Virus record (IMG/VR): IMGVR_UViG_3300018080_000104
Location: 131,454 to 195,453 of that record
Reading direction: 5' to 3' (one strand)
DNA length: 64,000 bases
From: a virus
Lineage: Duplodnaviria; Heunggongvirae; Uroviricota; Caudoviricetes
Shown: positions 14,275 to 62,947 of the stretch, one piece after another
Numbering within the stretch: position 1 is the first letter of the stretch
Layout: every line of letters starts with the position of its first letter
Notes under the pieces: generated by a model
What the model was told of the DNA's origin: nothing
Databases searched by the model: none
The model's input: the letters and a program-made list of their open reading frames with translations, nothing else
Program-made: the position numbers and the translations under genes

Positions 14275-14542
14275 CTGGTCGCATGTCTCCGGGTTTCCAC
14301 AGTTTACCTGGCGGTTGTGGTAATTGCTTCTTGTCGATGCGATCGATGATCGTAGTGCCTTTCACGCCCATTGCCTGCAGAGCATTCTCGAATCCTTCTT
14401 CGCCTGCATGCATAATAAAGATGTGCGACGGAGTCTGCTGCATTGCAACAGCGATTGGCGTTTCGTTACTGTCGTATATGACTAATCGGGTACATTCGAT
14501 ATTGTGCAATGCGCCCAATTGATTGTGTGTTTCAATGCGCAT
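14267..14542 (-). CDS. Hypothetical small protein, 91 aa, lying between the RNAP genes.
   Basis: ORF overlaps the flanking genes by a few nt at each end. No SD. Confidence 0.4.
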   Translation of the reverse strand: MRIETHNQLGALHNIECTRLVIYDSNETPIAVAMQQTPSHIFIMHAGEEGFENALQAMGVKGTTIIDRIDKKQLPQPPGKLWKPGDMRPDA

Positions 14543-19728: not shown

Positions 19729-20602
19729 GTCGATCTCGCGGAATGTTTGATTCTGCCGTAAAATGAATCGGCGGCACGCCGCCAGTGCGCTGCAAAGCAC
19801 GTCGTCGCATCGCTTCTTCAGTGATCGCAGGCTCGCTGCGTTTACGAATAAAATCGTAAGACAGCTTGCCCGATATCAGCGCTGCCAGAATTGCTGCGGC
19901 CGTAATTGCTCCGCCGGTATATTTAAGCCCGCGATCGGTGGCGTCAAATAATGATGCTTGCTTTTCCAGCTCGGGCATGACTGCCGCCGTTATCGTATCC
20001 AGGAGTTGATCATCGCTGCGCTTTTTCAGTCCAGTGGCTATCTCTTCTTGATACTGCTGTTTGATGTCTTCCAGCTCTTTTTCTTTTTCGGACCGACGTC
20101 GCCAGTCCATAAATGCATCAGTGCCTTTGTAGCCGGCAAGCGCTGCCATTCCGGCTGCAGGAATTCCCAGCCCCATTACGGCCGGTATGCCGAAATAGGT
20201 TCTAGCCTTTGTTCCGCCTTGCCACCAACCGGGGCCTTTCAGCAGATTTTCGTAAATCAGCTCTGCAAGCCTGCCGCTTATGCCACTGCGGAATTCCGGC
20301 GCCCTTTCAGCAGTCTTAAGCTGTCCCAGCTTCTCTTCTTCCTCTTCTTCTACGGGCTTTATCGAAGGCAACTGTACTCGCTGCGCATACGGTGAAGGCA
20401 GTTTCGGCAGTTTGCTGCCACGAAATGCGCGCCCTACGCCCATCGCGCCGCGAGTTAACACGCCAGCGCCCAATGCAGCTAGAATTAGATCGACCATGTA
20501 TTGCGAAGCTTCGCGCCGCAAGCCGGTCTGCACCGGCGTCAATTCGACTTTGCCAGCAAACTTAGTCAGGGCTTCGTAGCGTAAAGTAGTTGGGGCTTCC
20601 AT
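19703..20602 (-). CDS. Hypothetical protein, 299 aa, with a glycine-zipper-like hydrophobic segment.
   Basis: SD GGGAGtaacgggaATG. Poly-Glu run (EEEEEE). Confidence 0.5.
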   Translation of the reverse strand: MEAPTTLRYEALTKFAGKVELTPVQTGLRREASQYMVDLILAALGAGVLTRGAMGVGRAFRGSKLPKLPSPYAQRVQLPSIKPVEEEEEEKLGQLKTAERAPEFRSGISGRLAELIYENLLKGPGWWQGGTKARTYFGIPAVMGLGIPAAGMAALAGYKGTDAFMDWRRRSEKEKELEDIKQQYQEEIATGLKKRSDDQLLDTITAAVMPELEKQASLFDATDRGLKYTGGAITAAAILAALISGKLSYDFIRKRSEPAITEEAMRRRALQRTGGVPPIHFTAESNIPRDRHDNPSYAA

Positions 20603-34179: not shown

Positions 34180-37014
34180 CTACATCTTAGTGGGTTGCCC
34201 CGGTTTCTCCAAGACAACGTTCGCCGCTTTTGATTGGAATAGCTGCGATGCGACAGCCCGCAGCTGCGAGCCTTCGGCCAGCCAATCCTTAAACTGATCT
34301 AGTGTCAACCCCGTAATATTGCCAAAGCCTGCCCAGCCTTTCTCGTAATTGGCCATGTAGGCAGCTTTGGCGGCCTCCTTAGTGTCAAATCCGAGCATTA
34401 CTTTGTGCTCGTCGAACCGTTTGGTCTGCGGGTCGACCTGATCGACCACGAAAATGAGCTCAGTATCCGGATTGGGCCCAAGGAAAACATCGACATGGTC
34501 TCCGTCCTTATCTTCGGTTCGGCGGATGTAGCCGTAGTGGTTCTTCATCGCGATCGACCACTTTTTGCCGTCCCGCGAAACACCGGATCGCGTACTGCCT
34601 TTGGCGTTCTCGATAGTGACGTCGAAGCCGTGCATGCGCACATGCCCCTTGCGGTAATTGCCGGCTTCGGCCTGCGCTTCCGTGGGTTCTTGTACTTTCC
34701 GCGATTCGGCGGCGATCAACTGCGGCAGTGTCATTGCTTCCTTGACTCGCCCGCTTCGTTTCATGTCGGACCAGCCGCAGACCATGCAATGCGGATGCAG
34801 ATATTCGTCGTCGACGTGCGGCGCCCAGTATGTTTTGTGGCCGCACTCGCCGCAGATCATATCATCGTCGGACGCCGCCTTACTCTCTTGCAGCGGATAA
34901 TCCTCGTGCAGTGCGTGCAAAGCTGGCGCCCTCAATGCTCCTGACGGGAACGCTCCCTGACTCTTGATGCGGGCCATACGACCGATAAAGGCATCAGGGT
35001 CTGTTTGAAGCTCACGACGCAGTTCGTCCGACAGTCCAGTGCCGACACGTCCAATTGTCGGCCCATCCGGTCCTCGCGAATAAGTAAAACCACCTGCTCC
35101 GGTATCGCGGTACTTACCTTCACCGGGAAAGACTCCTGTAATCCATACATCGTGTTCGTCTAGTAGTTTGATTTTTTTCGGTTTGCCCGGTGGATCGTGA
35201 ATCACGATCCCTTCTTCGGTAAGCGGGTGGCGGCCTTCTGCAATTTCCCGCCAAAGCGATTTAGCTCCTTCCGGAGTTGTTGCCTCCTCCGGCGCGTGGA
35301 AGACATCTTCCGGCAGGTGAGACAAAACCTTGCGCAACATGGCCAGCCGCTCGGCATAGGGAGTCTCCTTGGCTATCGGTTCTTTTCCGAGTTGTTGAAT
35401 GTCATAGAGCATTTGCTTCAGCTTGACTCGCTGGTCTCGCTGCTTGGCAATGCTGTTGGCAACAGTGGCGTTGAGGATTCCTCCGAGTTCTTGCGGCGGA
35501 ATAGTTAGGCGTCCTGTTTGTGCCGGAGTGCGTGTGCCGTAGATTTCTCCCTTCAAAACTGTACCGACGAGCTCTTTTGGTATTTGTAGTTCAGGGCGTC
35601 CGTGGAGTATTCGCTCCGTGTGAACTAGCGGCCGCCCTGTCTCTTTGGCCACCCGATACGACATGATTTCGACGCCGTTTTCGAGTAGACGCGTAAGGCT
35701 TGCGGCCCCGTCGATTTTAGCCTGTACGGATGCGCCTGGCTTCAATTTAGCCAGCACGTCTTCGACCTGCTCTTGCGGAATCTTGGTATAGTGTACCTTA
35801 TTGTACGGTGTAACTTCCACCGGCGTTGTATTGACCAGCAGCCACGCTTTATCCTTGAAGCTGCGCGGCTTGATCAGCGCAAAGCGTTCGGGATGCCGCT
35901 GTCCGGCCATTGTGAAGCTGATCTTATCCGGTGTAGCCTTGGTGATAAGGATCTTTCCCTTCCGATGGGTTCGCACTGTGCCAGCACCGTAGCCGCCTCT
36001 AAGCGCGCCTTCGAACGGCATGTATCCGTGGTGATGAAGCGGCTGCCGGTAGATCGAAATTTTCTTTTTGGCATCGGGAAGCTCCTTTCTGGTGGCCCAA
36101 CTGAAGGCCCCCATAGCAGGATCGCCAAACCGGATATCGAAATGTTCGCCGGCACGCCGTGCATTGTGTTTCTGTATGACGAAATCCAGCAGCTGCCCGG
36201 CGCGGACTTTAGAAAGATCTCCCATGTTTTTGATGTCGGGAATTCCGGGAATTGCTACAGCACATTTCATAAGACCCAACAGATTAGCCCAGTCATTATC
36301 ACCGCCATGAGGATCAGCATCGGCCAACGGACCTCCCGCCAAGTCTCGTCCCAACGCTCCGTCTGTTCCCGCCGCTTTTGTATGCGGCCGTAGTAGTATC
36401 TGGCTAGCAGCCTTCGCTTGACCAATTCGCCCAAGGTAGGCGCTTCCTGTCGCAGGCGCTCCAGTATATTGTCCCGAGACGCCCTGTCGTAGTTCGCTAT
36501 TGTCTTTGCTATTCGTTCCGCTTCCTCTCGCGTTTCCGTGCGCGTTAGATATCGTCGCCCCATTGCCTTTCCCCTTGTCATTCTGGTAAAGGATGCCCTT
36601 ACGCCGTACCGCAACAGTAATGTGAAAAGGATATTTTGGCTGCGGAGGCAAGCCATACGTCCTGCGAAATCGCTCTAATTCGACGCTCTTGACCGGAATG
36701 ATCCACGCCTTAGACATCTCTTCCCAGCCGGCCGGCTCGATAATCTTCATTTTACCGACTATGTAATGAAAATCACGCCCTCTTTCCGAAACAGCTCGAG
36801 CTCCGCCTATCTGCGCAAGTTCTTCGGGACGGACAACAGAGATATGGGCATTCAGCTGCCCAGTCTCGTTTGTGGGCAGTTCGATTCCCGGCTCGTCGAG
36901 CGCGTCGAAGTAACCGCGTACTATGGCATTCGGCACGGCGAGCAATAACCAGCCGGATTTGGAGAAGTACAATTTCCCCACTTGCTGTGAATCTGTCGCG
37001 ACTTTTTCATTCAT
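34180..37014 (-). CDS. Multidomain nucleic-acid end-healing and sealing protein: 2H phosphoesterase + LigD-type 3'-phosphoesterase + ATP-dependent ligase + Zn ribbon + inorganic-pyrophosphatase-like domain.
   Basis: Two HxT/S motifs (AHISVV, FHITVA). PE block FVIQKHNARRAGEHFDIRFGD. Ligase motif I KIDGAAS, motif IV EGIVIH, motif V KIKLLDEHDVWITGV. Zn ribbon CGECGH...CMVCGW. PPase-like NHYGYIRRTEDKDGDHVDVFLGP...NYEKGW. Its start overlaps the stop of the PAS gene (ATGAATGA). Confidence 0.7.
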   Translation of the reverse strand: MNEKVATDSQQVGKLYFSKSGWLLLAVPNAIVRGYFDALDEPGIELPTNETGQLNAHISVVRPEELAQIGGARAVSERGRDFHYIVGKMKIIEPAGWEEMSKAWIIPVKSVELERFRRTYGLPPQPKYPFHITVAVRRKGILYQNDKGKGNGATISNAHGNARGSGTNSKDNSELRQGVSGQYTGAPATGSAYLGRIGQAKAASQILLRPHTKAAGTDGALGRDLAGGPLADADPHGGDNDWANLLGLMKCAVAIPGIPDIKNMGDLSKVRAGQLLDFVIQKHNARRAGEHFDIRFGDPAMGAFSWATRKELPDAKKKISIYRQPLHHHGYMPFEGALRGGYGAGTVRTHRKGKILITKATPDKISFTMAGQRHPERFALIKPRSFKDKAWLLVNTTPVEVTPYNKVHYTKIPQEQVEDVLAKLKPGASVQAKIDGAASLTRLLENGVEIMSYRVAKETGRPLVHTERILHGRPELQIPKELVGTVLKGEIYGTRTPAQTGRLTIPPQELGGILNATVANSIAKQRDQRVKLKQMLYDIQQLGKEPIAKETPYAERLAMLRKVLSHLPEDVFHAPEEATTPEGAKSLWREIAEGRHPLTEEGIVIHDPPGKPKKIKLLDEHDVWITGVFPGEGKYRDTGAGGFTYSRGPDGPTIGRVGTGLSDELRRELQTDPDAFIGRMARIKSQGAFPSGALRAPALHALHEDYPLQESKAASDDDMICGECGHKTYWAPHVDDEYLHPHCMVCGWSDMKRSGRVKEAMTLPQLIAAESRKVQEPTEAQAEAGNYRKGHVRMHGFDVTIENAKGSTRSGVSRDGKKWSIAMKNHYGYIRRTEDKDGDHVDVFLGPNPDTELIFVVDQVDPQTKRFDEHKVMLGFDTKEAAKAAYMANYEKGWAGFGNITGLTLDQFKDWLAEGSQLRAVASQLFQSKAANVVLEKPGQPTKM

Positions 37015-48685: not shown

Positions 48686-49549
48686 TCAACTGGCTCTGTG
48701 CCGAATATATTCGGCAACCCGCCTGTGCAATGAAGGCTTTTTGCTGCTCCATCGCAGACCCTCGCCGGCCACGACTTTGACGTCTTTGCTAGGATTATAA
48801 TCCCGTAGAAGCAAATGCCGCGTACCGCATCCGCGGCCGTCACGGCGTCCGTGCGACTGAAAAATTGCCGTACATTGTACATAATCTATTCGTTTGGCAA
48901 CCGCTTTCTGCCACCTTTTGGCCCATAGCATCAGATTCTGCTGCATCTCCAACGAATAGCCCCAATCACGGTATGTTTCGACCATTGATTGGGGATCAAA
49001 CATGCCTGCATAATGCACAGCATCTCCGCTACCCACAATACACCGTTGATATAGTCCGGGCTTCTTGATGATGTCGGCATGGTAACCCCAGACACCGCCG
49101 CTGGTAACGCGTTTGAGTTTGCCGTCGCGTTTCCATGCAGCCACGGCGCCTGTGCCGACTAACGTTCGCTCGTCGCCGATGGATCGCAGACGACCAAAGC
49201 ATTGGATTGCCTTATTGACGTTCAACAGCATGGATGCCCGCTGTAACCACCCTTTGCGGCGAATCAGACAATCGCCGTCCATGCAAACGATCTTTTTGTA
49301 GCCGCGCTTGATGAGCATTTCGCAACCGATTTGCATCAGCCGCTCTTTCTGCCACAAGACGTCGCCGGGCACAATATGCGAAATGCTGCCAAGATCGGCC
49401 GTACAGACGTGCCCCATATCACACTCGACGATCAACACTTGTTTTGCATCGCAGCTGCCCAGCTCGTCAAGTGTTTTTCGCAGATTCTCGTTTCGCCGCG
49501 GCGATGGCCCGGCGGCGAAGAAAGGGATACAAACGCCAACGTCTTTCAT
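48686..49549 (-). CDS. Glycosyltransferase-like protein (GT-A-like, DxD-type CMDGDC).
   Basis: SD AAGGAAGccatacATG. Assignment is weak; based on motif and neighbouring genes. Confidence 0.35.
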   Translation of the reverse strand: MKDVGVCIPFFAAGPSPRRNENLRKTLDELGSCDAKQVLIVECDMGHVCTADLGSISHIVPGDVLWQKERLMQIGCEMLIKRGYKKIVCMDGDCLIRRKGWLQRASMLLNVNKAIQCFGRLRSIGDERTLVGTGAVAAWKRDGKLKRVTSGGVWGYHADIIKKPGLYQRCIVGSGDAVHYAGMFDPQSMVETYRDWGYSLEMQQNLMLWAKRWQKAVAKRIDYVQCTAIFQSHGRRDGRGCGTRHLLLRDYNPSKDVKVVAGEGLRWSSKKPSLHRRVAEYIRHRAS

Positions 49550-49572
49550 GGTATGGCTTCCTTACCAAATAA

Positions 49573-50148
49573 TTACTTCTTGCCAGGGCTCCTCCTGGTA
49601 TTGTGCTTCGTTTTGAACGTCCTCATAGCCTCAGCAAAATTGCCTTGGCAGCCGGCCCATTTCCAAAATTGCGCAAAATGCTCCGGATGGTCGATATCGA
49701 CCGTCATGTATTGTCTTGCGCTGCCGTCCAATTTTGGCGACCGCAAAAAGATTTTGATCAGCCCGTTGGATGCCGCAACATATTCGCGGCAGTCGAGCAT
49801 AACATCGCGATCCGGGGATTTAGGCCGCTTCCAGCCCATCCGCATGCTGTTTCGCCAGGCAGAGATGATTTTGGCCGGTTGGTTTACGCAATGCTTGGCG
49901 TGCGACACTGCAACAGCCTCCGGATCCCGGATTAGATGCACATAACGTGCATCTGGATATTTCTCGTCGAGGATGCCGAGAAACCAGGTCAAACGATTGT
50001 TGACTTCGATGTGATTGTCCGGATACCACAGATCATTTCGTAAGCTGGCAGATTCATGCCTTGCCGTATAGTTTGTCGCGTGGCTACATGCTCGTGCCAT
50101 AGTCATCGAGCCACAGCGACCAGTACACAATACGAAAATGTTGTTCAT
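49573..50148 (-). CDS. Stf0-type sulfotransferase.
   Basis: FVLCTGRCGSMTM resembles the Stf0 PAPS loop (CTQRSGST). ATG 50148 follows AAAGGAttgaac. Confidence 0.5.
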   Translation of the reverse strand: MNNIFVLCTGRCGSMTMARACSHATNYTARHESASLRNDLWYPDNHIEVNNRLTWFLGILDEKYPDARYVHLIRDPEAVAVSHAKHCVNQPAKIISAWRNSMRMGWKRPKSPDRDVMLDCREYVAASNGLIKIFLRSPKLDGSARQYMTVDIDHPEHFAQFWKWAGCQGNFAEAMRTFKTKHNTRRSPGKK

Positions 50149-50150
50149 GT

Positions 50151-50822
50151 TCAATCCTTTCTGGCAGGGTCGTCCTTGCGCTTCTGTACTTTGGCACGCA
50201 CAGCTGCCAGCATTTTCATTTTGTTGCCGACTCCCAATGTCCAGTTGGCATGATGCATCACGATATCATCGGGCACATGCAACGGCTGACCTGGCGCCCA
50301 TTTCCGTCGTGGCGACCAAAAGCGATTATCGAGAGTATTGCAGCGGAATTGCCTGCGGATTTTCTTGCGATTAAGTAACTGCTGCTCATTTGTTGTTGCT
50401 GTAACGCGGGCTGCAATCTGCGACCACACATCGTACATAAGGTCGGACGCGCGGCAAATAAAAAAGCCACCACTAAGCCGCGGGCCGTCTCCCCTCCAAC
50501 TTTTTGCCGATTCCGCCACCAAATCATTGCCGTCGATTGCGTTTAACAGTATTTCTACTGTACGACCAAAAAATTGTATGTCGCAGTCCGTCTGTACAAA
50601 AAATTCTTCGCCCTCTTGCTGTGCTACTCGTACAGCTTGCGCCGTCAGCAACGCCCGCTCTCGCATTGTTTCATTGAAACCCTTTGTGCGAAAACGGCCG
50701 CGGGGATCCCGCTGTGGCAGTTGGCCGATAGTCAACGTATATTCCCCGGGTATCAAGGATGGCAGGAAATATTCATCCAGCATCCGTTTGTGGGAGTCGG
50801 TGAAATATACGTAGAGTCGCAT
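50151..50822 (-). CDS. Glycosyltransferase-like protein (TDCDI DxD-like motif).
   Basis: Its start overlaps the stop of the upstream gene (TAATG). Weak assignment. Confidence 0.3.
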   Translation of the reverse strand: MRLYVYFTDSHKRMLDEYFLPSLIPGEYTLTIGQLPQRDPRGRFRTKGFNETMRERALLTAQAVRVAQQEGEEFFVQTDCDIQFFGRTVEILLNAIDGNDLVAESAKSWRGDGPRLSGGFFICRASDLMYDVWSQIAARVTATTNEQQLLNRKKIRRQFRCNTLDNRFWSPRRKWAPGQPLHVPDDIVMHHANWTLGVGNKMKMLAAVRAKVQKRKDDPARKD

Positions 50823-51682
50823 TAGTCTTCAGCCAACTGGTATAAGTGCCCGTATATGTCTTCGGCCGGCATGTCTGGATTCAGACATCGCACGAAATTC
50901 GTCACGTTGGAGTTGCCATGGACAAACACGTCCGACTTGGCCAATAGCCACGCGTCTTTGATGATATCGACGCCCAGAATATACGGATTGAACTTCTTGG
51001 CAAGATGCGGTTCGCCTTTCGCTGGCGTAAATTCGCTCGCGCACACAACGCGGGTGCCATATCGCCTGTTCACTTTATCGATGACTTCGCCGGCATCTGT
51101 AGCTAACAGAATTACGCTGTTCTCTGTTAAATGCTTTTCAACCCGCGCGAAATAAGCCGGATAGCTCGGATGCCCCACTCCGAGCTGATCGCTAAAGTAA
51201 ATAGCGCCGCCGTGGAAACGCAGCGGGCCGCGGAGATGCAGCCCAATGACGTGATGGCCTTCCAAATGCTCTCTGTAGAACATGTCAATGAGCATCACAA
51301 TGTCCTGCCGCAGCTGAATGTGCTCTTTGATCAGGACATGAGCATGCCACGGATCGGTCGGCGGCATCAGGACGTCCGGGCATTTGTATTTTTCACGGTA
51401 CTCCTTCGGCAGCACAGCGCCTCGTGGCGCCACAATTGCCACTTTTGGTTTGCGGAGCAGTTCCATCGACCGATCGCCACGCTTGACAATCTGCCCTTCC
51501 TGTTCTTCCCGCACAAAGAACTGCGGCCAGGCATCCTTGCCTGGTGCCGAATAAAGCCCGCCCTGCCACTTGGGCCATATTCGCCATTCCCGCTGTTCGG
51601 CCAATGCACAGGCATGTACGTAATGGTTTAGATTACAGAACATGCCACTCTTCCCGAGCCTGTAAATGAATAAGCCCGCCAT
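50822..51682 (-). CDS. Fucosyltransferase / GT23-like glycosyltransferase candidate.
   Basis: ATG 51682 (MAGLFIYRLGKSGMFCN...). Weak similarity to the NodZ / O-FucT families. Confidence 0.3.
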   Translation of the reverse strand: MAGLFIYRLGKSGMFCNLNHYVHACALAEQREWRIWPKWQGGLYSAPGKDAWPQFFVREEQEGQIVKRGDRSMELLRKPKVAIVAPRGAVLPKEYREKYKCPDVLMPPTDPWHAHVLIKEHIQLRQDIVMLIDMFYREHLEGHHVIGLHLRGPLRFHGGAIYFSDQLGVGHPSYPAYFARVEKHLTENSVILLATDAGEVIDKVNRRYGTRVVCASEFTPAKGEPHLAKKFNPYILGVDIIKDAWLLAKSDVFVHGNSNVTNFVRCLNPDMPAEDIYGHLYQLAED

Positions 51683-51928
51683 CGTATTTCTCTTTGACAA
51701 GGGGTTGTAGAGTTACGGAATTTCTACAGTCAATGTTACCTGTTTTGGCTGCGGCATGACAATATCACCTTTGATCAATACGGCTGTTTTGAACGGAAAA
51801 GTGTCATATCGATGCATAATAGCCGCATTTTCGACGAATGTAAAGCCGTCTCGCAGCATTTCGGCGACCGTTTTTCGAGCACATCTTTGTCGCTGGTTGC
51901 AAATATTTCGGTATACGGGCCGTCTTCA

Positions 51929-52654: not shown

Positions 52655-53329
52655 CTATTTCTCCAACTCCCAGACTGCCAAATCGGCCGTGCCGAATGCT
52701 GGACGGAACGCGCCCAGACCGATCGTCGGCGCTCCGGCTTCAAAGAAGCCTTCCATCATGTCTGGCGTGATTACGCTTGCGCGCAGTCTGATCAGCACCT
52801 TAAACACGATGCTCCACGGCAACGGCAAGACCGGGCGGAACAGCTCGACGGGAATGAGACTCCCGCCCTTCTGCACGCGGCCGGCACCGTGATGCACCCA
52901 GATACCGCTTTCCGGATCATGCTTTACACCATCGTCGCGCGTTTTCCAGCCGTGCCATACGACTTGCTTGCCGGCGGAAAGGATCGGAATCTCGGTCGGC
53001 TCGATCTTGACGAATGACAGGATATTCTCTGCGAGCTCCTGTCGCGCGCCCGCCTTCATCCTGCCTTGCGGCCCCCAGCGGTTTACGCAACTGGCGCCTT
53101 TCTGCTTCGCCAAAAATGACAAAATGTTAATATTGGGAATAAACAGCTTCTTGCCGATACCGTCGGCTTCGTCGTGTGCATAAAACCGCCGCTCTGGGTG
53201 TCGGTTGTGCTCCTCTGCAATTTTGGTATCCGTTCCTGCAAACCTGTCGAACATGAGCGGCGAAATACCGCTTAATTCGCATCGATAGGTTTTAATCGTG
53301 TCCTTCGGCTGTCGTCTCTTTGCAGCCAT
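52655..53329 (-). CDS. Hypothetical protein, 224 aa, abutting the repeat array.
   Basis: SD AAAGGAGaaaagATG. Has a truncated paralog inside the array. Confidence 0.55.
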   Translation of the reverse strand: MAAKRRQPKDTIKTYRCELSGISPLMFDRFAGTDTKIAEEHNRHPERRFYAHDEADGIGKKLFIPNINILSFLAKQKGASCVNRWGPQGRMKAGARQELAENILSFVKIEPTEIPILSAGKQVVWHGWKTRDDGVKHDPESGIWVHHGAGRVQKGGSLIPVELFRPVLPLPWSIVFKVLIRLRASVITPDMMEGFFEAGAPTIGLGAFRPAFGTADLAVWELEK

Positions 53330-53681
53330 CTTTTCTCCTTTTTCCTGTTAGTGAAAAACTCGCTCAGAAAAAACTTGCTTTACTTTGCTGTGTTTTTGCT
53401 GTGCTGCACAGTGCTGAGCGCTGCTACGCGCCGCTGCGCTGAACTATGCTAGGCCTAGCTTCGATTTTATTCTATGGTTTTGGCGGTAAAGTATGCTTTG
53501 CATTGCACTGCATTGCATTGCAGCGCTGCGCACGGCTCTGCCTAGCCCGGCTACGATTTCATTCTATGGTTTTGGCGGTAAAGTGTGCTTTGCTTTGCAT
53601 CGCTATGCTTTGCACGGCGTTGCAGAGCTGCACAAGGCTATGCACAGCACAGCTCAGCAGCTGATTCAACTGAATTCTACT

Positions 53682-53918
53682 CTATTGACGTCTTGGCAGC
53701 AACTTTGCCAAAAACGACAAAACGTTAGTACTGAATGTAAGCAGCTTTTTGCCGATACCGCCAGCATCGTTGGCATTGTTGTCGGCCAGAAGGCGCCCCA
53801 GGTGCTTCAGGCGATCCAATTCCCAAAGGTATTCCCATTCAGCAAACCTGTCGTACATGATCGGTGAAATACCGGGTAATTCGCATTGATAGGTTTTATT
53901 GTACGACCCCGTTGGCAT
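53682..53918 (-). pseudogene. Decayed N-terminal paralog of the 52655..53329 gene, embedded in the repeat array.
   Basis: KTYQCELPGISPIMYDRFAE and GIGKKLLTFSTNVLSFLAKL match KTYRCELSGISPLMFDRFAG and GIGKKLFIPNINILSFLAKQ. The same SD context is present, but ATG is changed to ATA with an indel. Truncated at 78 aa. Confidence 0.6.
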
Positions 53919-54913
53919 CTCTTTGCCACTATCTTTTCTCCTTTTGTTAATGCAAGCGCGTTCGAGAAAATATAGTAAAAGTGTGCTTTGCATTGCGCTG
54001 CATCGCCTCGCTGAACTGGGCCGCGCAATGTTGCGATCTGTTTGGTTGTATCCGAACTCTATGCTATTGGTCTCCTGCCAATAAAATGCGCTTTACCATG
54101 CTTTACATTGCACCGCTGGACCAAGCAGTGCTTCATCTCGCTGAGTTGCATTGAACTATAATTCTGTTGGTCGCGATAGTAAAGTACGCTTTGCTTTGCA
54201 TTGCATCGCAGCGCTATGCTTTGCCGCGCCGCGCCGCGCAGAGCCTTGATTATGTTCTGTCGGTCTTGGTAGTAAAGTGTGCTTTGCATTGCTGAGCTTC
54301 GCACGGCTGAGCTAGGCTGAGCCCCGCCGAGCCTCGATTATATTCTGTTGGTCTTGGTAGTAAGTGTGCTTTGCTATGCATTGCTGTGCTGAGCAAAGCA
54401 GTACTCTGCTGGGCTAAGCCTTGCCCGGCAACGATTATGTCCTGTTGGTCTCGGTAGTAAAGTATGCTTCGCTGGGCTTAGCTTTGCTGAGCCCTGCTTT
54501 GCGCAGCGATGCTATGCAGAGCGCAGCCTGGCATTGATTATGTTCTGCTGGTCTTGGTAGTAAAGTGCGCTTCGCTTTGCTGCGCCGAGCTCGGCTGCGC
54601 CTAGCTGGGCTGAGCTAGGCCCAGCTCTTGTTCTGTTGGTCTTGATATAGAGTGTGCTTTGCTTTGCTCTGCATCGCAGCGCATAGCTCTGCGATGCCCT
54701 GCCGGGCCCCGATTATGTTCTGTTGGTCTTGGCAGTAAAGTGTGCTTTGCTTCGCTGAGCATCGCTAGGCAATGCACTGCTATGCTATGCTGAGCCAGAC
54801 TAAGCCGCGATTATGTTCTGTTGATTTTGCAATGGAGTATGCTGCGCTTTGCATTGCTTTGCTTAGCCGGACTCTCTGCCGCGCTCACACCGCGGCAGGT
54901 GGGGAGAAGTCGC

Positions 54914-55099
54914 TTAGGTGTCTGAGATTCGCCGAACTAATTGATCGAGGCTGGTCGCGTGATTCACGAGTCGTCCAATCGCCTTCTTGACAGCCTCGGC
55001 CGATAGACCACTTTCCTCGACGGCTTCGCTACGGAGAAACGTGTAGCGACCACTAGATTGTCGGTCGTCGATCCACTTTTCCAGGGTTGCAGCTGCCAT
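54914..55099 (-). CDS. 61-aa ORF on a unique island inside the array.
   Basis: SD GGAGAcggtgaaATG. Protein MAAATLEKWIDDRQSSGRYTFLRSEAVEESGLSAEAVKKAIGRLVNHATSLDQLVRRISDT. Confidence 0.35.
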   Translation of the reverse strand: MAAATLEKWIDDRQSSGRYTFLRSEAVEESGLSAEAVKKAIGRLVNHATSLDQLVRRISDT

Positions 55100-56716
55100 T
55101 TCACCGTCTCCATGTAGTCTGCACAAAGGGACAGAAAGTATCCCGCTATGCAGACTATTGTACGATATGGATCGATCCGGCGCCGCTTTGCTATGCTATG
55201 CTCTACTAAGCCACGATTATGTTCTGTTGGTCTTGGTAGTAAGTATGCTTTGCTTCGCTGTGCAGCGCTTTGCTGGGCTGAACAGAGCCTAGCCGTGCCG
55301 GGCGCCGATTATGTTCTGTTGGTCTTGGCAGTAAAGTGTGCTTTGCTGCGCTTTGCTGTGCTGTGCTGAGCAGGGCAGTACTTTGCTTCGCTAAGCCCAG
55401 CCCCGATTATGTTCTGTTGGTCTCGGCAGTAAAATATGCTTCGCTGCGCCGAGCCGAGTTGGGCTCCGCCGGGCTCTGCCATGCTGAGCCTGGCCCCGAT
55501 TATGTTCTGTTGGTCTTGGTAGTAAGTGTGCTTTGCTTTGCTGAGCATGGCTAAGCTATACACGGCAATGCTGCGCTACGCTGCGCTTTGCTAGGCCGGG
55601 CAAAGCCTCGCTGCAATTATGTTCTGCTGGTCTTGGTAATAGAGTATGCTTTGCTATGCTTTGCTTCGCTGGGCCCAGCTGGACTATGCAGTGCTGTGCC
55701 TCGCACGGCCTGGCAGCGATTATGTTCTGTTGGTCTTGATAGTAAGTGTGCTTTGCTTTGCTTTGCAGCGCTCTGCTCTGCCACGCCGAGCTACGCGGGG
55801 CTCTGCTGCGCCTAGCCCGGATTATGTTCTGTTGTTTTGGCAGTAGAGTGTGCTCTGCTTTGCAGCGCTGCGCTGGGCCTGGCCGCACTGTGCCTAGCCC
55901 TGATTATGTTCTGCTGGTCTTGGTAGTAAGTATGCTTTGCTACGCTGCGCCACGCTAGACTACGCTAAGCTCGGCTTAGCCAAGCCTCGCCCCGATTATA
56001 TTCTGTTGGTCTTGGTAGTAAAGTGTGCTTTGCTTTGCTGGGCTATGCCTAGCTAGACTACGCTAAGCTCGGCTTAGCCGAGCCGCGCCCCGATTATGTT
56101 CTGTTGGTCTTGGTAGTAAGTGTGCTTTGCTGCGCTGGGCATCGCTCGGCTATGCTGTGCTCTGCTGGGCCCGGCAAAGCCTGGCAGCGATTATGTTCTG
56201 CTGGTCTTGGTAATAAAGTGTGCTTTGTTATGCTTTGCTTCGCTGGGCCCAGCTGGACTACGCAGTGCTGCGCCTCTCGCAGCATGGCAGCGATTATGTT
56301 CTGTTGGTCTTGATAGTAAGTGTGCTTTGCTGCGCTGAGCCAGGCAACGCTACGCTGAGCCGGGCGTTGCTGCGCGGGGCCAAGCTGCGATTATATTCTA
56401 TTGGTCTTGGTTCGCAGCGCTCTGTATGGCTTTGCTGCGCTGAGCGGCGCTCTGCCTGGCACTGATTATGTTCTGTTGGTCTTGGTAATAAAGTGTGCTT
56501 TGCTTCGCTGCGCTGAGCTGAGCATTGCCCTGCTTAGCTATGCCGGGCCCCGATTATGTTCTATTGGTCTTGGTAGTAAAGTATGCTTTGCTTTGCGGCG
56601 CTACGCACGGCTACGCTCCGCCGCGCTCAGCTGAGCCATGCAGCGATTATGTTCTGTTGGTCTTGGTAGTAAGTGTGATTTGCTTTGTCCTGCTTTTGCT
56701 GCCGCTTAACTGGACA

Positions 56717-57622
56717 CTATGCGCAAGGGTCGGTCTGCTTGTCGATCTCGACCTGCTTAGCTCGCATCTTGGCCAGTTGCTTATCATACGCTTTGCCGAT
56801 TGGATGATTGAGACACATCAACGGAGCGTGAGCAACACCATTATCCCTCACTACAACGTGATTATCTCTTCTTGCCTCGCGGAGGATCTCTTGGGCTTTG
56901 TCGATCTGTTCGTCCGAGTGCGGACCCTTACTGTGGCAATCGAATGCTCGTGCCATTCTCTCGGCCATCAACTGGATCAGCTCGCTCTTGGTGCCGATCT
57001 GGATCTCGGGGACCAAGCAGAACTGCCTGGTACGCGGCCAAAGTGGAGCATCCTTGGGGATCTTGCCCTCTTCCTTGTTCTTCTCGTAACCTTTGGTTGT
57101 TTCATTCTCGATTGTCGGCACTTGTTCGAGCCACATGCAACGGTGGCGGTCGTTCTTATCCGGAGGATCGCTCGCCGGCCTGACATTGAACGGGTAGAAA
57201 TCCTCATTGGGCATGGTCGGTATCACGCCGGCCATCACAATACAGTAGAGCTTTTCTGCTTCTTTGACAGGCTTATTCGTTTTGACTACGCGAGTACGCG
57301 CGACTCCCAGGTCATCGAGTTCAACGCACTCCGGACGAACCTCGATGATCTTTTGTTTCAATTCGTTCCAGATAAACAGGTTGCCATGTATGCCCGTGTC
57401 AAGCACAAAGCCATATTCGTTCGGCTGGAAGGCCGGGTCGCGAGAGTCCTTCCTCGGTCTGACCCAAGTTCCTCGCGGGAAGCACTTGCCGATCTCGGCG
57501 TGCATGCCACACGTTGCTTCAATCCCCTTGGTCTTGGCAACACCCTTGGCGGCTAAGAACCAAGCGAACATACCGGCGACAGTGGCAGCACAACTGCCCA
57601 TGAAACCTCTACGATTCGACAT
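56717..57622 (-). CDS. Lipoprotein-like or secreted hypothetical protein, 301 aa, on a unique island inside the array.
   Basis: ATG 57622 follows AAGGAGAGtagtg. Signal-like N-terminus MSNRRGFMGSCAATVAGMFAWFLAA. Confidence 0.55.
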   Translation of the reverse strand: MSNRRGFMGSCAATVAGMFAWFLAAKGVAKTKGIEATCGMHAEIGKCFPRGTWVRPRKDSRDPAFQPNEYGFVLDTGIHGNLFIWNELKQKIIEVRPECVELDDLGVARTRVVKTNKPVKEAEKLYCIVMAGVIPTMPNEDFYPFNVRPASDPPDKNDRHRCMWLEQVPTIENETTKGYEKNKEEGKIPKDAPLWPRTRQFCLVPEIQIGTKSELIQLMAERMARAFDCHSKGPHSDEQIDKAQEILREARRDNHVVVRDNGVAHAPLMCLNHPIGKAYDKQLAKMRAKQVEIDKQTDPCA

Positions 57623-58031
57623 CACTACTCTCCTTCTTGATAACGACGAGGACACTGCCTCTTGGATGATCGCGGCCGAGCCTCGCCCTGTCACGATTTT
57701 GTTCTGCTGTTCTTGGTAGTAAAGTGTGCTTTGCTTTGCGGTGCTGCGCCGGGCTGTGCAGTGCTCCGCATCGCTGAGCACGGCCACGCCGCGATTATGT
57801 TCTGTTGGTCTTAGTGTAAAGTGTGCTTTGCTTTGCTGGGCTAAGCGCCGCTACACCGGGCTCCGCTGGACTTTGCTTGGCCCCGCTAGGATTATGTTCT
57901 ATTGGCCTCGGCAGTAAAGTGTGCTTTGCTGTGCTTTGCTGGGCCCAGCTGGGCTATGCAGTGCTGTGCCTTGCGTTGCCGCGCTCCGATTATGCTCTGT
58001 TGGTCTGGAAAAGAATTGAAGCACAAAAGGC

Positions 58032-58214
58032 TGTCCTAAATGTGGCCATGTTTCCAAATCCAACCGAAACGGATTAGTGTTTCGGTGCGAAGTCTGTGGT
58101 TATGCAGACAACGCAGATCGTATTGGCGCTACTAACGTAGCACTTCGGTCCTTGGACATAGGGGACCGTAGCGGATCGCGTCTTGACACACGTTCATTCC
58201 AGCATCCCCTCTAG
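58032..58214 (+). pseudogene. tnpB: IS200/IS605-family TnpB (OrfB) 3' remnant: the zinc-finger C-terminus only.
   Basis: Translates to CPKCGHVSKSNRNGLVFRCEVCGYADNADRIGATNVALRS, the typical TnpB C-terminal Zn-finger region. An in-frame stop lies immediately upstream. The preceding sequence is a truncated repeat unit. Confidence 0.7.
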
Positions 58215-58335
58215 TTCTGCAACGTATTCGTCCAGACCTTTTCGCCTTAGCTTTACCTCTTTCAACTCCTTTTCAATAAATTCCTTTGGGGGGTTTCTCA
58301 ATAGGCTCCCAATCAAATCCTCGCCAAAGGTCTGA

Positions 58336-58470
58336 TCACGGCACGCCACAGCCTAAATCTATCAGATAATCACCAACATTATACTCTTCAGTAATAATGT
58401 CTTTAGGAATTTTAATGAATTGCCAGCTACCATGCATAGCAGCATCATTTGACCTAAATCTGTACCACAT
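58336..58470 (-). pseudogene. Possible 5' fragment of a SAM-methyltransferase gene (motif I VGDYLIDLGCG), ending in a premature stop.
   Basis: ORF ends right after the Gly-rich motif. It lies between the TnpB remnant and more repeat units. Confidence 0.25.
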
Positions 58471-58811
58471 TATTTGTCCTCGAACTTGTGAAGTTTTATG
58501 GGGAAGGATGCCATGCCCAACAACTTCCACTATTGATCTTGGGAGTAAGTGTGCTTTGCTTCGCATTGCATTGCTGAGCATCGCTGAGCTATACAGCGCC
58601 TTGCCTGGCCCGGATTATATCCTGTTGATTTTGGCAGTAAAGTGTGCTTTGCTTTGCATCGCAGGGCGCCGCTTCGCAGTGCTGTGCTGAACTTAGCAGC
58701 GCTTTGCCAAGCCCCGATTATGTTCTGTTGGTCTTAGTAGTAAAGTGTGCTTTGCACTGCAGGGCTGCGCCCTGCGCAGCTAGGCCGTGCATTGCCCGGA
58801 TGATCTCGGCT

Positions 58812-59633
58812 TTACCTGGTCTCTACCACGCCAAACCGCTGCCGGTTGAACGGCTGTAACGGTATTCTGGGCGAGCCCAGCGGAACGGGATCGTATCCCC
58901 GCTTTTCCGCATAGGTCGTAGTACCTTCGGCGTAAGTGGCCAAATAGCTGCCGGTCATCACGCCCAGCCGTTCTCTCTCCACTATCTTGCCGTCCTGCGG
59001 GACCAACTGAATGTCGGGATACACGAGCTTGTCGTGTAAATGGCCCATCAGCGTAATATCTGCATTGGTCTGATCGACGAACTTTTTCAGTCGCTGCATC
59101 TTACCGCCGCGGGTCTGAGCATATCCGCTGCCGTGGTGCGCCCTGATAGTAAACGTATCAGTCTTTTTTCCGCGCTTGAATACGATTGAGGCAAAACACG
59201 AATAGCCCAGGTTTTGCACTTTCAAACGATCACAGAGTTCCCGATGTAAATGCTGCTGCTCTTGATGGAGCTGATAAGCATCTTCGTGATTGCCGTAAAG
59301 CAGCCCCATGCACTTGTCTGCAATTGGTGCAAACCATTCGGCAATAGTGTCATTTCCTTTTTGTCCCATTGCACCGAGATCGGAGACCCGGAGCATCTTA
59401 TCGACCACAGTCGGGTCAAACCGACTGTCTTTGTAGCCGATGAAATCACAGTAGTCGCCCATCCCGATCCATAGGCACCGTTCTTGCCTCTTGATCCAGT
59501 CGATAGTCTCTTGCGCTCGGTCCTTTGCACAAGCTTCATTCAAGAGATGAATATCGCCTAGCGGTACAAGGTAAAACGGACAATCCAAATCCTTTTTTCG
59601 TAGCGTAACATTCCATGGTTTTGCAGCGTACAT
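58812..59633 (-). CDS. Calcineurin-like metallophosphoesterase (Ser/Thr phosphatase-like).
   Basis: Motifs GDIHL, GMGDYCD, GNHE and GHLH in canonical order. Confidence 0.75.
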   Translation of the reverse strand: MYAAKPWNVTLRKKDLDCPFYLVPLGDIHLLNEACAKDRAQETIDWIKRQERCLWIGMGDYCDFIGYKDSRFDPTVVDKMLRVSDLGAMGQKGNDTIAEWFAPIADKCMGLLYGNHEDAYQLHQEQQHLHRELCDRLKVQNLGYSCFASIVFKRGKKTDTFTIRAHHGSGYAQTRGGKMQRLKKFVDQTNADITLMGHLHDKLVYPDIQLVPQDGKIVERERLGVMTGSYLATYAEGTTTYAEKRGYDPVPLGSPRIPLQPFNRQRFGVVETR

Positions 59634-60467: not shown

Positions 60468-60677
60468 TTATTGTGGCACGACCTTGCTGGCCCTAGTTTT
60501 ACCTTCATCGGTCGTGATCGTCTCGTACTCTACTGCCGTGCCTTCAGTCAATCCGTCGATGTCGCTTTTATTCGGCAATGCCGTGCAGTGAAAAAACACA
60601 TCGGTCTTCCCGCTGTCTGGCATAATAAAGCCAAATCCACGATCAACAATCACTTTTTTAATGGTACCGCGTAACAT
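60468..60677 (-). CDS. Cold-shock protein (CspA family).
   Basis: MLRGTIKKVIVDRGFGFIMPDSGKTDVFFHCTAL carries RNP1-like GFGFI and the FFH motif. ATG 60677 follows GGAGAgcgag. Confidence 0.8.
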   Translation of the reverse strand: MLRGTIKKVIVDRGFGFIMPDSGKTDVFFHCTALPNKSDIDGLTEGTAVEYETITTDEGKTRASKVVPQ

Positions 60678-60770
60678 CTCGCTCTCCATCATCGTTCAGG
60701 GTAATTGCAAAGAATGCAGGACATCTACCCTTTGAATGTCTCACATATCAGTAAATCGCGTTCGCTGGTT

Positions 60771-61079
60771 TCAGTCGCGTGTTCGCAGGATTGCCAGGAT
60801 ATCTTCCTCGCGGGCCATAACATATTCCTGGCCGTCGAACCTAAATACATCGCCGGCAAAATTGGACAAGACTACACGATCGCCTTCGCCGATCTGGCCG
60901 GAAACGTATGTGCCGTCGGGCTGCAGCCTTCCTGGCCCTACCGCAATAACAGTGCCAAGCCGCGGACGATCTTGCGACGCATCGGGAATGACTACGCCGC
61001 CCGGCGACATTTCTTCTGCTGAATCTCGTTCTACGACAATTCGGGTGCCGATTGGCTCAAACACAATCTTCGCTGACAT
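60771..61079 (-). CDS. groES: Co-chaperonin GroES (Cpn10).
   Basis: MSAKIVFEPIGTRIVVERDSAEEMSPGGVVIPDAS...GTVIAVGPGR...DGTYV...GDRVVLSNFAG...DGQEYVMAREEDILAIL. ATG 61079 follows GGGAGagaaag. Confidence 0.85.
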   Translation of the reverse strand: MSAKIVFEPIGTRIVVERDSAEEMSPGGVVIPDASQDRPRLGTVIAVGPGRLQPDGTYVSGQIGEGDRVVLSNFAGDVFRFDGQEYVMAREEDILAILRTRD

Positions 61080-61362
61080 CTTTCTCTCCCTGTACTTGTA
61101 TTGGACGAAAAGCCTCACACTCCCAGACCGGCGTAACTACCATCATATCGTCGATCTTCCCGCAGCAGATCTCATACAGTGCCGCTGCAATTCGGCAGTT
61201 GTCTATCTGACCTGGATGAAAATGATCGCACCGGCAGCATAGACAGTGGTCCCGATGCCGACCTCGCAGATCCGTCTGCACGCTCACAGTGTGCCCGTGA
61301 TGTTCGTACTGTTCGATCATCGCATTATTCCTTACCCTATCTAGGGTAGCGTAACCGCCCCA

Positions 61363-62199
61363 TCATTGCAATATGTTGCATACCTGCCGGAAAACCGCGT
61401 CCAGTGTAAAATAGGCCGGAACGACCTCCCGGAGCCTTGCTTGCATGGCAGGAACCGCCCCAGATGCCTCCAGCGTCCGCAGGCAGCCCGCCAAGCCGTC
61501 CAAATCGTCTACGTGGCAAAGGACACTAAATTCCTCCCAACGCAGCCTATCGGCGTACGGGAGCCATAATTCGTCATAGATGTAGACCGGGATTGCCCCG
61601 TAGGTCATAGCCTCGTACAGCCGAAAGGACGTCTTACCATATCCGCGGGGACATAACGCGAATATACAGCGGGATAACCCCCCTGCAGCGGGTCGCCATA
61701 GTCTGCTTTGCCTATAAGTGTCATGGATTACGAATCCTGGCTCTTTGGCCAGCCGATTCCGCATCCTGGTGCGTACGCGGTGAGTGTTGCAACTCTTACT
61801 GGTAATTCTGCCGGAAAAATAGGCAAAATGCTTTCTTTCTACTCCAGCAACAGCAGGCAGAAAATCGTATACCAGCGGAACCGCAATATCGCCGACGCCG
61901 CCGGCCGCGAACGTCAACAGATTGGCCGGCACTTCATTGCGAAAGGCGCCGCTGTCATGCTGTACGATCGTGAATGCCGGCGCCTTGACGCGATCCAGCG
62001 CCGCCTGTATCTGCGCTGTGCGCGACTTCTTTGCTGTGTACAGATGCGTCCAGAATATGGGCAGGTACTGTCGGCTCAATCCTTTTGGCTGCTCCTGTTT
62101 CCACCTCGCATAGAAATAGTCTTCCAGCTTCGGTCCAGGAAACGGATAGGCCCAGCATCTGGTCCGTATTTTTCGCAAGCTTTCGGGCACATCAATCAT
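61363..62199 (-). CDS. Exostosin-like (GT47) glycosyltransferase.
   Basis: C-terminal block FALCPRGYGKTSFRLYEAMTYGAIPVYIYDE typical of the exostosin family. Confidence 0.5.
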   Translation of the reverse strand: MIDVPESLRKIRTRCWAYPFPGPKLEDYFYARWKQEQPKGLSRQYLPIFWTHLYTAKKSRTAQIQAALDRVKAPAFTIVQHDSGAFRNEVPANLLTFAAGGVGDIAVPLVYDFLPAVAGVERKHFAYFSGRITSKSCNTHRVRTRMRNRLAKEPGFVIHDTYRQSRLWRPAAGGLSRCIFALCPRGYGKTSFRLYEAMTYGAIPVYIYDELWLPYADRLRWEEFSVLCHVDDLDGLAGCLRTLEASGAVPAMQARLREVVPAYFTLDAVFRQVCNILQ

Positions 62200-62947
62200 G
62201 GAAATGGAATCCTTTCGGTAACGATGCCAATACGCCGCGGCTCGGCATTGCATTAGTGACGTTGCGCTCGTGGCACACAGCTATGCAGCATTGATCGCCG
62301 ACGAATTCATCTACAGTCCATATATTATGGCTTCGACACATTACCGTAGTAAGTTTATCGCGCCAGGGCTCCAAATAGGATACGAACGGCGATGCTTGCC
62401 TTGCCGACAATTGCTTTGTTACGCCACTATTCGCCTCCATGCGGAAAAACGTCCTGAAATCCAATGTCCGCGGTTTTGTGTTTCGATAGCAAGCATCCTG
62501 CAGCAGCTGTACGAAATCTTCACGCACAGCGTCGTCGTTGTCCACCCTGGATGTGAGTAAGTGCGAATACTTCGTAGCCGTCTCGGCAACAATCGTCTTG
62601 ATTGCCGCTTTGTAGTCGACCCCGTGGCCGCCGCGCGCTGCCCGGAACGCTGTCATGACCAGTCGTACCGGACATTTGGCGGCCGCAACTATCGCTTTGA
62701 TGTCTGCCGCCGGCGTACGGCTGTCCATAGCGAGCACCCAAAAGAAATCCTTGTTGAGCTGATACTGTATGCTGGGCGCACAGAATCGCCGGAAGAGGAC
62801 AAACCGCTGTTTCATCCATCGTTCCGGCGATCCAATGCGCCGATGCCGCCTTTTCACATTTGCCCGCCGCCTATCTGAGGCTTTCCGCCAATCGTCGTAC
62901 AGGCCAACGTTGTAGCGAGTAAAGATGAAATGGGCGATCTTCGGCAT
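62192..62947 (-). CDS. Putative glycosyltransferase-like protein, 251 aa.
   Basis: Adjacent to and overlapping the GT47 gene. No strong motif. Weak assignment. Confidence 0.3.
   Translation of the reverse strand: MPKIAHFIFTRYNVGLYDDWRKASDRRRANVKRRHRRIGSPERWMKQRFVLFRRFCAPSIQYQLNKDFFWVLAMDSRTPAADIKAIVAAAKCPVRLVMTAFRAARGGHGVDYKAAIKTIVAETATKYSHLLTSRVDNDDAVREDFVQLLQDACYRNTKPRTLDFRTFFRMEANSGVTKQLSARQASPFVSYLEPWRDKLTTVMCRSHNIWTVDEFVGDQCCIAVCHERNVTNAMPSRGVLASLPKGFHFHD

Follow-up and report, generated by a model that had tools for sequence, protein, structure and literature searches.

A probable VIPR locus with about 35 predicted guide RNAs and a relaxed scaffold motif in a putative jumbo phage

Introduction

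VIPR, first described in 2026, is a phage-borne relative of CRISPR (bioRxiv 10.64898/2026.04.26.720920). The system consists of Vipr, a phage-encoded, ancestral Cas7-like RAMP, a vap accessory gene, and guide RNAs (vrRNAs) of about 100 nt, in which 9-16 pentamers, with the trinucleotide GGY alternating with a hypervariable dinucleotide NN, are followed by an invariant 3' tail (10.64898/2026.04.26.720920). The NN dinucleotides pair with double-stranded DNA that is read as NNx, with one base skipped, and as a result, transcription of the competing phages, satellites and prophages is repressed (10.64898/2026.04.26.720920). Here we analyze a 64,000-nt stretch of a tailed phage genome (Caudoviricetes; positions 131,454 to 195,453 of the IMG/VR record IMGVR_UViG_3300018080_000104; hereafter, the window), in which a large repeat array abuts a gene for a protein of the Cas7 fold. 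We conclude, with a probability of roughly 0.85, that this region is the VIPR locus of a jumbo phage, comprising a Vipr gene and an array of about 35 predicted minus-strand vrRNAs.

Several additional features of VIPR are relevant for the comparison. Apart from GGY-NN, the repeat consensus can take the forms NNNGG, YNNNG and NNNNG, and the arrays come in several architectures (10.64898/2026.04.26.720920). The characterized loci carry from one to a few guides, and in the published work, nucleases are ascribed only to the host-domesticated VIPR types. In the structure of the complex from Escherichia phage SUSP1, there is one Vipr protomer per pentamer; H17 and D177, the latter in the G-loop, read the first base of the trinucleotide (G1), R138 of the thumb and W178 read the second (G2), and the third (Y3) occupies a pocket that excludes purines (10.64898/2026.04.26.720927).

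Results

Phased pentamer tracts alternate with conserved cores

Phase-aware parsing of the array yields 35 units in the same orientation (53398-58798), each composed of a conserved core of 32 or 33 nt and a variable stretch. The units are 75-117 nt long, mostly 88-103 nt, and Tandem Repeats Finder returned periods of 88-97 and about 200 nt, so that the 5.4-kb array of about 35 units proposed in a first-pass annotation of the window is real. The 40-mer that was singled out in that annotation is present in about 33 copies, all on the plus strand (53486-58755), whereas outside the array, only chance matches of 9-11 nt were detected (BLAST within the 64-kb window); when up to three mismatches were allowed, 10 copies were counted, compared to none in 100 shuffles.

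The variable tails had been characterized as loose GC-framed words, of low complexity and under relaxed constraint. Instead, they are gap-free, strictly phased runs of pentamers that read GCNNN on the plus strand, without a single indel within any tract, and it is this 5-nt phase that had been missed. The tracts consist of 6-17 pentamers (9-16 in the published vrRNAs), with the mode at 12-13 and a total of 424 pentamers; the window contains 32 occurrences of (GCNNN)10GC, compared to none in shuffles. Read on the minus strand, the pentamer becomes NN-D-G-Y, where D is A in 55%, G in about 21-22%, T in 19% and C in 5% of the cases. The conserved G is present in 99%, and the conserved C in 94% of the pentamers. 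The exceptions at the C position are nearly all T (23 of 24), and therefore, this position behaves as Y (99.8%; C 94%, T 5.4%). The entropy of the two variable NN positions is 1.93-1.98 bits, close to the maximum. Thus, two of every five positions in the tails are almost invariant, and the core is conserved at 80-100% at nearly every position (26 aligned cores), so the suggestion that the core and the tail are subject to different constraints holds. A conserved trinucleotide alternating with a hypervariable NN in tandem pentamers, with a conserved element after each tract, is the layout of the vrRNAs.

On the minus strand, a typical run of 10-15 pentamers ends with AAAGC AAAGC, immediately before the 33-nt core. 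The ends of the tracts differ from their interior: GGC occupies the second pentamer from the 5' end in 28 of the 33 full-length guides, AAAGC is the last pentamer in 27 of 33, and the NN of the penultimate pentamer is AA in 15 of 33, whereas the interior pentamers are mostly of the AGC and TGC types. This position-dependent motif suggests that the tract ends could have nucleation or capping roles. Nearly all the guides are unique, 29 of the 33 having no counterpart with at least 70% identity in the NN positions; two near-duplicate pairs reside in the largest block of the array (55648/56222, 88% NN identity; 55934/56027, 70%). No self-target of the window guides scored above shuffled controls, which is in line with the absence of self-targets in VIPR systems (10.64898/2026.04.26.720920).

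The gene adjoining the array encodes a Vipr homolog

The array ends 69 nt upstream of the start of a gene for a 224-aa protein (52655-53329), for which there was no match in Pfam or PADLOC. A word-index homology search recovered only two proteins; an exhaustive search, used instead, yielded a family of proteins of approximately 190-220 aa, with 153 clusters at E < 1e-3. The profile built from 70 homologs matches the SUSP1 Vipr protein (PDB 36pp_D, E = 5.1e-9), and the alignment spans the thumb Arg and the G-loop (GxGxxRPxFGrF); only the C-terminal ~65 residues of the window protein are similar to SUSP1 Vipr. The AlphaFold2 model of the 224-aa protein has a pLDDT (predicted local distance difference test score) of 95.7, and the top Foldseek matches all belong to the Cas7 family (Cmr4, Csm3, type VII Cas7 and Cas7-11; E-values down to 3e-5), among them 6ifn_E, the Cas7 chain that the discoverers of VIPR used as a query. 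Judging by the profile match and the predicted fold, the gene product is a Vipr homolog, a Cas7-like RAMP, and the first-pass remark that no cas gene is present was misleading. As in VIPR, a small Cas7-like RAMP with a G-loop is located directly beside the tracts (SUSP1 and a type II system from a Pseudomonas fulva prophage; 10.64898/2026.04.26.720920, 10.64898/2026.04.26.720927; PDB 36pp), and among the described systems, VIPR, likewise phage-encoded, is the closest.

The RAMP fold is also shared with the backbone of class 1 CRISPR-Cas (Cas7, Csm3 or Cmr4 on crRNA). Both kinds of loci have arrays of guide units with a conserved and a variable part, and, by analogy with VIPR, the window protein would likewise place one protomer on each RNA segment of fixed length, with periodic flipping of bases. 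However, the window array has a 5-nt period, in place of the 6-nt period of class 1 backbones, its guide information is spread non-contiguously over 2 of every 5 nt, and its variable parts do not represent captured protospacers. Among the flanking open reading frames (ORFs) scanned, no cas1, cas2, Cas6 or large subunit gene was found.

Pentamer tracts accompany vipr across the family

For comparison, we used 80 IMG/VR loci (denoted L followed by a number) that encode relatives of the window Vipr. In-phase pentamer tracts abut the vipr gene in all 80, and in 78, these are GG(C)NN tracts on the coding strand of vipr; any tracts on the opposite strand are present in only three. These loci contain between one and eight tracts and at most 193 pentamers, so that the window array, with 35 tracts, has about twice as many pentamers as any of them. 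In L220, which encodes a protein with 47% identity to the window Vipr, strict GGC tracts are found on both sides of the gene, and in L221 (43% identity), the tract includes several TGC and CGC pentamers. In L229 and L230, the tracts, again on the vipr strand, are of the AGC-NN type and end with AAAGC AAAG-, as in the window.

These observations bear on the strand of the window guides, which we infer from the asymmetry of the motif. The strand of the tracts in the relatives, the match to the published YNNNG form, the pyrimidine-only exceptions at the last fixed position, as predicted by a Y3 pocket that excludes purines, and the orientation of the genes neighboring the array, all of which are on the minus strand, together make it very likely that the guides are read on the minus strand as (NN-DGY)n. 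A crude assessment of orientation from ORF calls at loci found by pattern matching gave only a 2:1 bias, and we relied instead on the analysis anchored on vipr.

The bare pattern (GCNNN)10GC is present in at least 120 IMG/VR contigs, with several tracts in most of them, among the matches listed. The inspected loci are intergenic arrays of blocks of about 9-15 pentamers, mostly GGC-NN, that end just upstream of a gene start and are punctuated in a locus-specific manner, from a 1-nt phase slip up to about 30 nt. In the flanking DNA of these listed matches, a homolog of the window Vipr was detectable with tblastn at 12 of the 120 loci; the remainder may belong to other Vipr clades or represent something else. 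Several pattern loci have other conserved trinucleotides, namely, CGC-NN (L045, L124, L066, L076, L084, L123), TGC-NN (L033, L056) and GCA-NN / NN-TGC (L100, L077), and each of these arrays has its own punctuation, such as 'AACGTATTTTACACATTTACCCCGA' in L124 and 'AATGGCAGGAG' in L100. In the canonical arrays of L046 (5699-6005) and L028 (1991-2351), the guides are separated only by a 1-nt phase slip, where the GC spacing is 4 or 9 instead of 5 or 10, which fits the "staggered arrays" of the VIPR paper. The L161 region 6716-7000 encodes pentapeptide repeats with a 15-nt period, (GAGCGGGGCAAACCT)n, that score as a GC-period-5 tract, and is a false positive for simple vrRNA detectors.

Among the GenBank phages, no record matched the whole array in a blastn search, and only one, Burkholderia phage vB_E436 (PQ789831.1), encodes a detectable homolog of the window Vipr (vBE436_00039, 32% identity, E = 9e-17). 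There too, a GG[C/A]NN tract precedes the gene; unlike the window array, it is a single canonical tract, in a 45-kb phage, and the gene is annotated only as a hypothetical protein.

The core is a candidate promoter and 3' tail

The minus-strand sequence of the core is ACACT(T)TACTACCAAGACCAACAGAACATAATC, which contains the string TTTACT-N16-CATAAT. A consensus scan called promoter-like sites on this strand in 13 cores, 12 of them with TTTACT-N16-CATAAT or TATAAT and the 13th with a 17-nt spacer and TATAGT, and detected no such site within the cores on the plus strand. In the whole region, there are 15 promoter-like sites compared to 3.8 expected from shuffles. Transcription starting 5-9 nt past CATAAT would begin within the first pentamers of the next tract. 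Given that the core carries a promoter-like site placed before the next tract, each guide probably has a promoter of its own; in the canonical array of L158, a TATAAT box precedes each unit. The alternative proposal from the first pass, that the core is a promoter for the phage RNA polymerase, gained no support. Because the whole core is conserved rather than the two hexamers only, it probably also acts at the RNA level, as the 3' tail of the vrRNA. The alignment of the core with the inter-tract sequences and tails of the relatives gave no reliable similarity, and the search of IMG/VR with a core 18-mer returned only single chance matches (L001-L016). No Rfam family matched the units at E ≤ 1 (52-60 kb scanned); the sub-threshold match to CRISPR-DR25 (23.5 bits against a gathering threshold of 36, E = 0.42) lies outside the units (58259-58299, plus strand) and is probably due to chance.

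Relaxation of G1 coincides with a change in the G-loop

The conserved trinucleotide of the window is D-G-Y rather than the canonical G-G-Y and is closest to the YNNNG form. At the position of the G1-reading residue D177 of SUSP1, the window protein has Ala (G-loop GLG-A-FRP), in contrast to Asp in SUSP1 and Thr in most relatives; specifically, Thr is found in 82 loci, that is, every other motif-bearing comparison locus except L221. Among the Thr-bearing loci, the 64 that have 15 or more pentamers show G at 61-100% of the G1 positions (median about 96%), compared to about 22% in the window. Five other loci bear Ala, and in four of these (L221, L226, L229, L230), the tracts are relaxed or of the AGC type. 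The association between the Ala residue and the relaxed G1 motif is suggestive.

Insertions, the vipr pseudogene and neighboring genes

The array is divided into five blocks (Table 1). A decayed paralog of vipr corresponds to the N-terminal part of the intact gene, and both are part of the locus, as the first pass had surmised; the upstream region of the paralog parallels that of the intact vipr and was duplicated along with it as a vrRNA-vipr segment. An insertion of ~310 bp (54871-55179) that carries a 70-aa ORF splits one tract into 6 and 7 pentamers (54841-54870 and 55180-55214). A 301-aa ORF, which has no match in Pfam, PHROG or PADLOC and recurs unchanged in the contigs of three other samples, and a foreign segment of ~515 bp (58007-58521) with a TnpB remnant also interrupt units, the latter splitting one core. 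The remnant, recognized in the first pass, is thus real, but it is not a partner of the array: it belongs to an unrelated insertion. An explanation of the array through IS605 ends or omega RNA is likewise disfavored, given that only a 64-aa fragment of TnpB is present, on the opposite strand and within the core-splitting segment.

Table 1 Features of the probable VIPR region and of related loci
Feature	Coordinates	Strand	Comment
vipr gene	52655-53329	-	224-aa Cas7-like RAMP; predicted protein partner of the array
vrRNA block A	53398-53661	-	3 units (13, 12 and 15 pentamers) directly upstream of vipr
Decayed N-terminal vipr paralog	53682-53993	-	Aligns to Vipr across its first ~90 residues (43% identity) and is truncated beyond them
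vrRNA block B	53985-54870	-	10 tracts; the last (54841-54870, 6 pentamers) cut by an insertion
Example 33-nt core	54248-54280	-	Minus-strand ACACTTTACTACCAAGACCGACAGAACATAATC; putative vrRNA 3' tail and promoter of the next unit
70-aa winged-helix ORF	54914-55126	-	PADLOC AbiEi antitoxin N-terminal domain, 6.5e-7
vrRNA block C	55180-56683	-	16 tracts and a terminal core (56645-56683)
301-aa ORF in the array	56717-57622	-	N-terminus resembles a twin-arginine signal (MSNRRGFMGSCAATVAGMFAWFLAA)
vrRNA block D	57695-58006	-	3 units and a core truncated at 58006
TnpB C-terminal remnant, 64 aa	58020-58211	+	Pfam Cas12f1-like_TNB, 3.9e-8; PHROG transposase, 4.5e-10
81-aa ORF, no family	58336-58581	-	In segment 58007-58521
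vrRNA block E	58522-58798	-	3 units; upstream end of the array
Metallophosphoesterase gene	58812-59633	-	Directly upstream of the array; candidate accessory (Vap-like)
Mre11/SbcD-like metallophosphoesterase gene beside vipr	L220 1722-2534
Mre11/SbcD-like metallophosphoesterase gene beside vipr	L060 1113-1943	-
Mre11/SbcD-like metallophosphoesterase gene beside vipr	L182 5188-5985

The neighbor at the upstream end of the array is a metallophosphoesterase gene (Pfam Metallophos, 3.6e-4, just under the cut-off; PHROG 'DNA repair exonuclease', 3.5e-19) rather than the described vap; the other candidate for an accessory gene, the winged helix-turn-helix ORF inside the array, is not the described vap either. 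Members of the same metallophosphoesterase family adjoin vipr or vrRNA units in four loci (the window, L220, L221 and L060), and a second, divergent Metallophos family is located directly upstream of vipr in 19 of the 80 loci. No phosphoesterase or Mre11 is mentioned as an accessory in the VIPR paper (10.64898/2026.04.26.720920), and the recurrence of this neighbor suggests that it contributes an accessory activity not described so far. Alternatively, the adjacency could reflect nothing more than synteny, given that vipr often belongs to phage recombination modules that also encode an exonuclease, an annealing protein and a single-stranded DNA-binding protein.

In the rest of the window, large ORFs on the minus strand (12403-14274 and 15355-19800) match the PHROGs of the beta and beta' subunits of phage multisubunit RNA polymerases. 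Taken with the 183-kb length of the contig that carries the element (JGI 3300029267), these matches suggest that the virus is a jumbo phage encoding an RNA polymerase of its own. A 944-aa protein (34183-37014, minus strand) combines a region resembling ATP-dependent DNA ligases (~411-705) with a C-terminal domain of ~160 aa that is common to DarB-like antirestriction, endolysin-annotated and virion proteins in PHROGs. The locus is flanked by glycosyltransferase-like genes (NodZ-like, Rhamno_transf, Exostosin_GT47 and Nucleotid_trans; 48686-51700, 61363-62947 and 60468-61118, all on the minus strand), and genes for Cpn10 (GroES), a cold-shock-domain protein and an SPFH/Band 7 protein lie just beyond the array. 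A tandem repeat with a 33/69-nt period (15043-15189; 2-3 copies with ~80% identity) inside a 254-aa ORF (14532-15296) is probably a proline-rich coding repeat.

Discussion

How well the VIPR interpretation and its alternatives survive

The assignment of the region to VIPR has to be weighed against several observations. The strand, ends and promoters of the units are all inferred. The promoter match was scored on the sigma-70 consensus, which may not be that of the host, and is weak evidence because the phage encodes its own RNA polymerase. No stable structure is predicted for the minus-strand core (z = -0.17), unlike the SUSP1 tail, which forms a pseudoknot, and folding is slightly better for the core on the plus strand (z = -2.05). 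The window tracts do not conserve the first G of the canonical GGY, so that the window Vipr is only a putative reader of this scaffold, and the link between the G-loop residue and the motif is imperfect because L227 combines Ala with strict GGC tracts. Target searches were negative as well. A local NNx search of 2 Mb with 20% mismatch equaled shuffled controls at all skip lengths, and exact NNx scans, seven in all, of collections of viruses, metagenomes and genomes found nothing, or chance-level seeds that did not extend. These scans, with patterns of 9-11 dinucleotides from six of the 35 guides (57728 was used twice) and no mismatches allowed, are a weak test. Finally, several units are truncated or degenerate and one vipr paralog is a pseudogene, because of which part of the array may be decaying.

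The competing explanation that fares best retains VIPR and reverses the strand: the array would be transcribed on the plus strand, antisense to its neighbors, with guides (G-C-Y-N-N)n and the core GATTATGTTCTG as the 3' tail. Formally, G-C-Y-NN parallels G-G-Y-NN, with T or C at 77% of the third positions, and the core with the first pentamers can form a small hairpin (-7.2 kcal/mol), the minus strand being unstructured. Set against this are the location of the tracts on the vipr coding strand in nearly all relatives, the AGC-type L229 and L230 included, and the lack of promoter-like sites on the plus strand of the cores. Furthermore, the exceptions would become G-to-A changes at the strictly read G1 and an invariant C would occupy G2, a misfit with the published contacts, and YNNGC is absent from the described consensus variants (10.64898/2026.04.26.720920). 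We therefore consider the plus-strand version unlikely.

It seems less likely still that the locus is for the most part defunct, the remains of a vrRNA array that once grew through duplication and slippage but now decays as satellite DNA without guide function. Such a fate would be compatible with the truncated tracts, the vipr pseudogene, the insertion sequence/TnpB remnant and the inserted ORFs, with the failure of the exact scans of six guides to find targets, and with the lack of array-length polymorphism, a check proposed in the first pass: contigs from other samples are 99.9-100% identical, and no length variation was seen. However, over 424 pentamers, G is kept at 99% and Y (C) at 94% next to positions of near maximal entropy, no indel disrupts the phase of any tract, conservation extends to nearly every position of the core, and an intact vipr gene abuts the array, all of which requires ongoing purifying selection.

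Very little speaks for an element acting at the DNA level, such as iterons, a centromere-like site, a protein-binding array or a promoter bank that enhances the transcription of genes downstream, with the pentamers as protein-binding sites. Cooperatively bound arrays of short period do exist, such as the heptads of omega proteins and the hexamers of Fur, the conserved core is promoter-like, and a small winged helix-turn-helix ORF lies inside the array. However, that ORF belongs to the tract-splitting insertion, no gene for partition or replication initiation (Rep or ParB/ParR-type) was found among the ten flanking ORFs scanned, and vrRNAs explain the pentamer architecture, the tract length and the adjacency of Vipr exactly, which makes the iteron or centromere interpretation of the first pass unnecessary.

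We give hardly any credence to an RNA sponge for a TRAP-like ring protein or to a canonical CRISPR array with unusually long spacers. In the trp leader, TRAP binds 11 (G/U)AG-NN repeats around an 11-mer ring, with a 5-nt period of a protein-read triplet and 2 spacer nucleotides, to which the blocks of about 11-13 repeats of a triplet plus two in the window bear a resemblance, and CRISPR shares the alternation of repeats and variable parts. However, TRAP is an unrelated protein that serves a regulatory switch rather than a guide, no TRAP-like gene is present among the flanking ORFs scanned, and the partner protein found is a RAMP. The "spacers", with an invariant GC every 5 nt, have an internal frame that is not expected of captured protospacers, no CRISPR repeat family scored above threshold, and no Cas adaptation protein was detected among the flanking ORFs, the rest of the window not having been scanned exhaustively; the array is not a canonical CRISPR, as the first pass had stated. 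Rho or CsrA sites and Chi-site or restriction decoys were dropped after the match to the VIPR literature, G-quadruplexes because the AGC- and TGC-type units lack GG, and coding for pentapeptide repeats because all frames contain stops.

A proposed mechanism and its implications

Thus, the region is best interpreted as a VIPR locus, and the earlier suggestion that a guide-array-like function was worth testing is borne out by the match of the array to vrRNAs. How the array is transcribed, assembled into ribonucleoprotein and aimed at targets, and what biological role it has, can be outlined by extension from the SUSP1 work. Transcription would start from TTTACT-N16-CATAAT in the core, at the first pentamers of the next tract, such that the 3' tail of one vrRNA would overlap the promoter of the next. 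Each pentamer would be bound by one Vipr protomer, with the conserved trinucleotide flipped out and the NN presented for pairing with double-stranded DNA, reading NNx NNx and skipping one base. The complex would then silence a competing phage, satellite or prophage; if the adjoining metallophosphoesterase is an accessory enzyme, the target might instead be marked for a nuclease. The array could have grown as segments were duplicated and their NN positions then diverged, with later invasion by small gene cassettes and the insertion sequence remnant.

VIPR as such is already known; what is new here is an exceptionally large locus with a relaxed scaffold motif. A more far-reaching possibility, which we put forward only tentatively, is a distinct VIPR subtype that would combine loss of G1 recognition, a promoter for each guide and an Mre11-like metallophosphoesterase effector. 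In such a subtype, the D-G-Y/NN code would be tied to the Thr/Asp-to-Ala change in the G-loop, the promoter in the tail of the preceding guide would permit some 35 independently expressed guides, and the metallophosphoesterase effector would imply that phage-borne VIPR destroys its targets rather than only repressing them.

The window can be regarded as a natural experiment on the VIPR code, in which G2 and Y3 are kept, G1 is relaxed, and the residue that reads G1 is changed. This pairing of a motif change with a G-loop change makes the determinants of scaffold recognition directly testable. At a practical level, the simple (GCNNN)10 pattern could enable annotation pipelines to flag vrRNA arrays without structure searches. 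With approximately 35 mostly unique guides, the locus would, among those examined here, hold the fullest record of the targets at which a phage directs its VIPR system.

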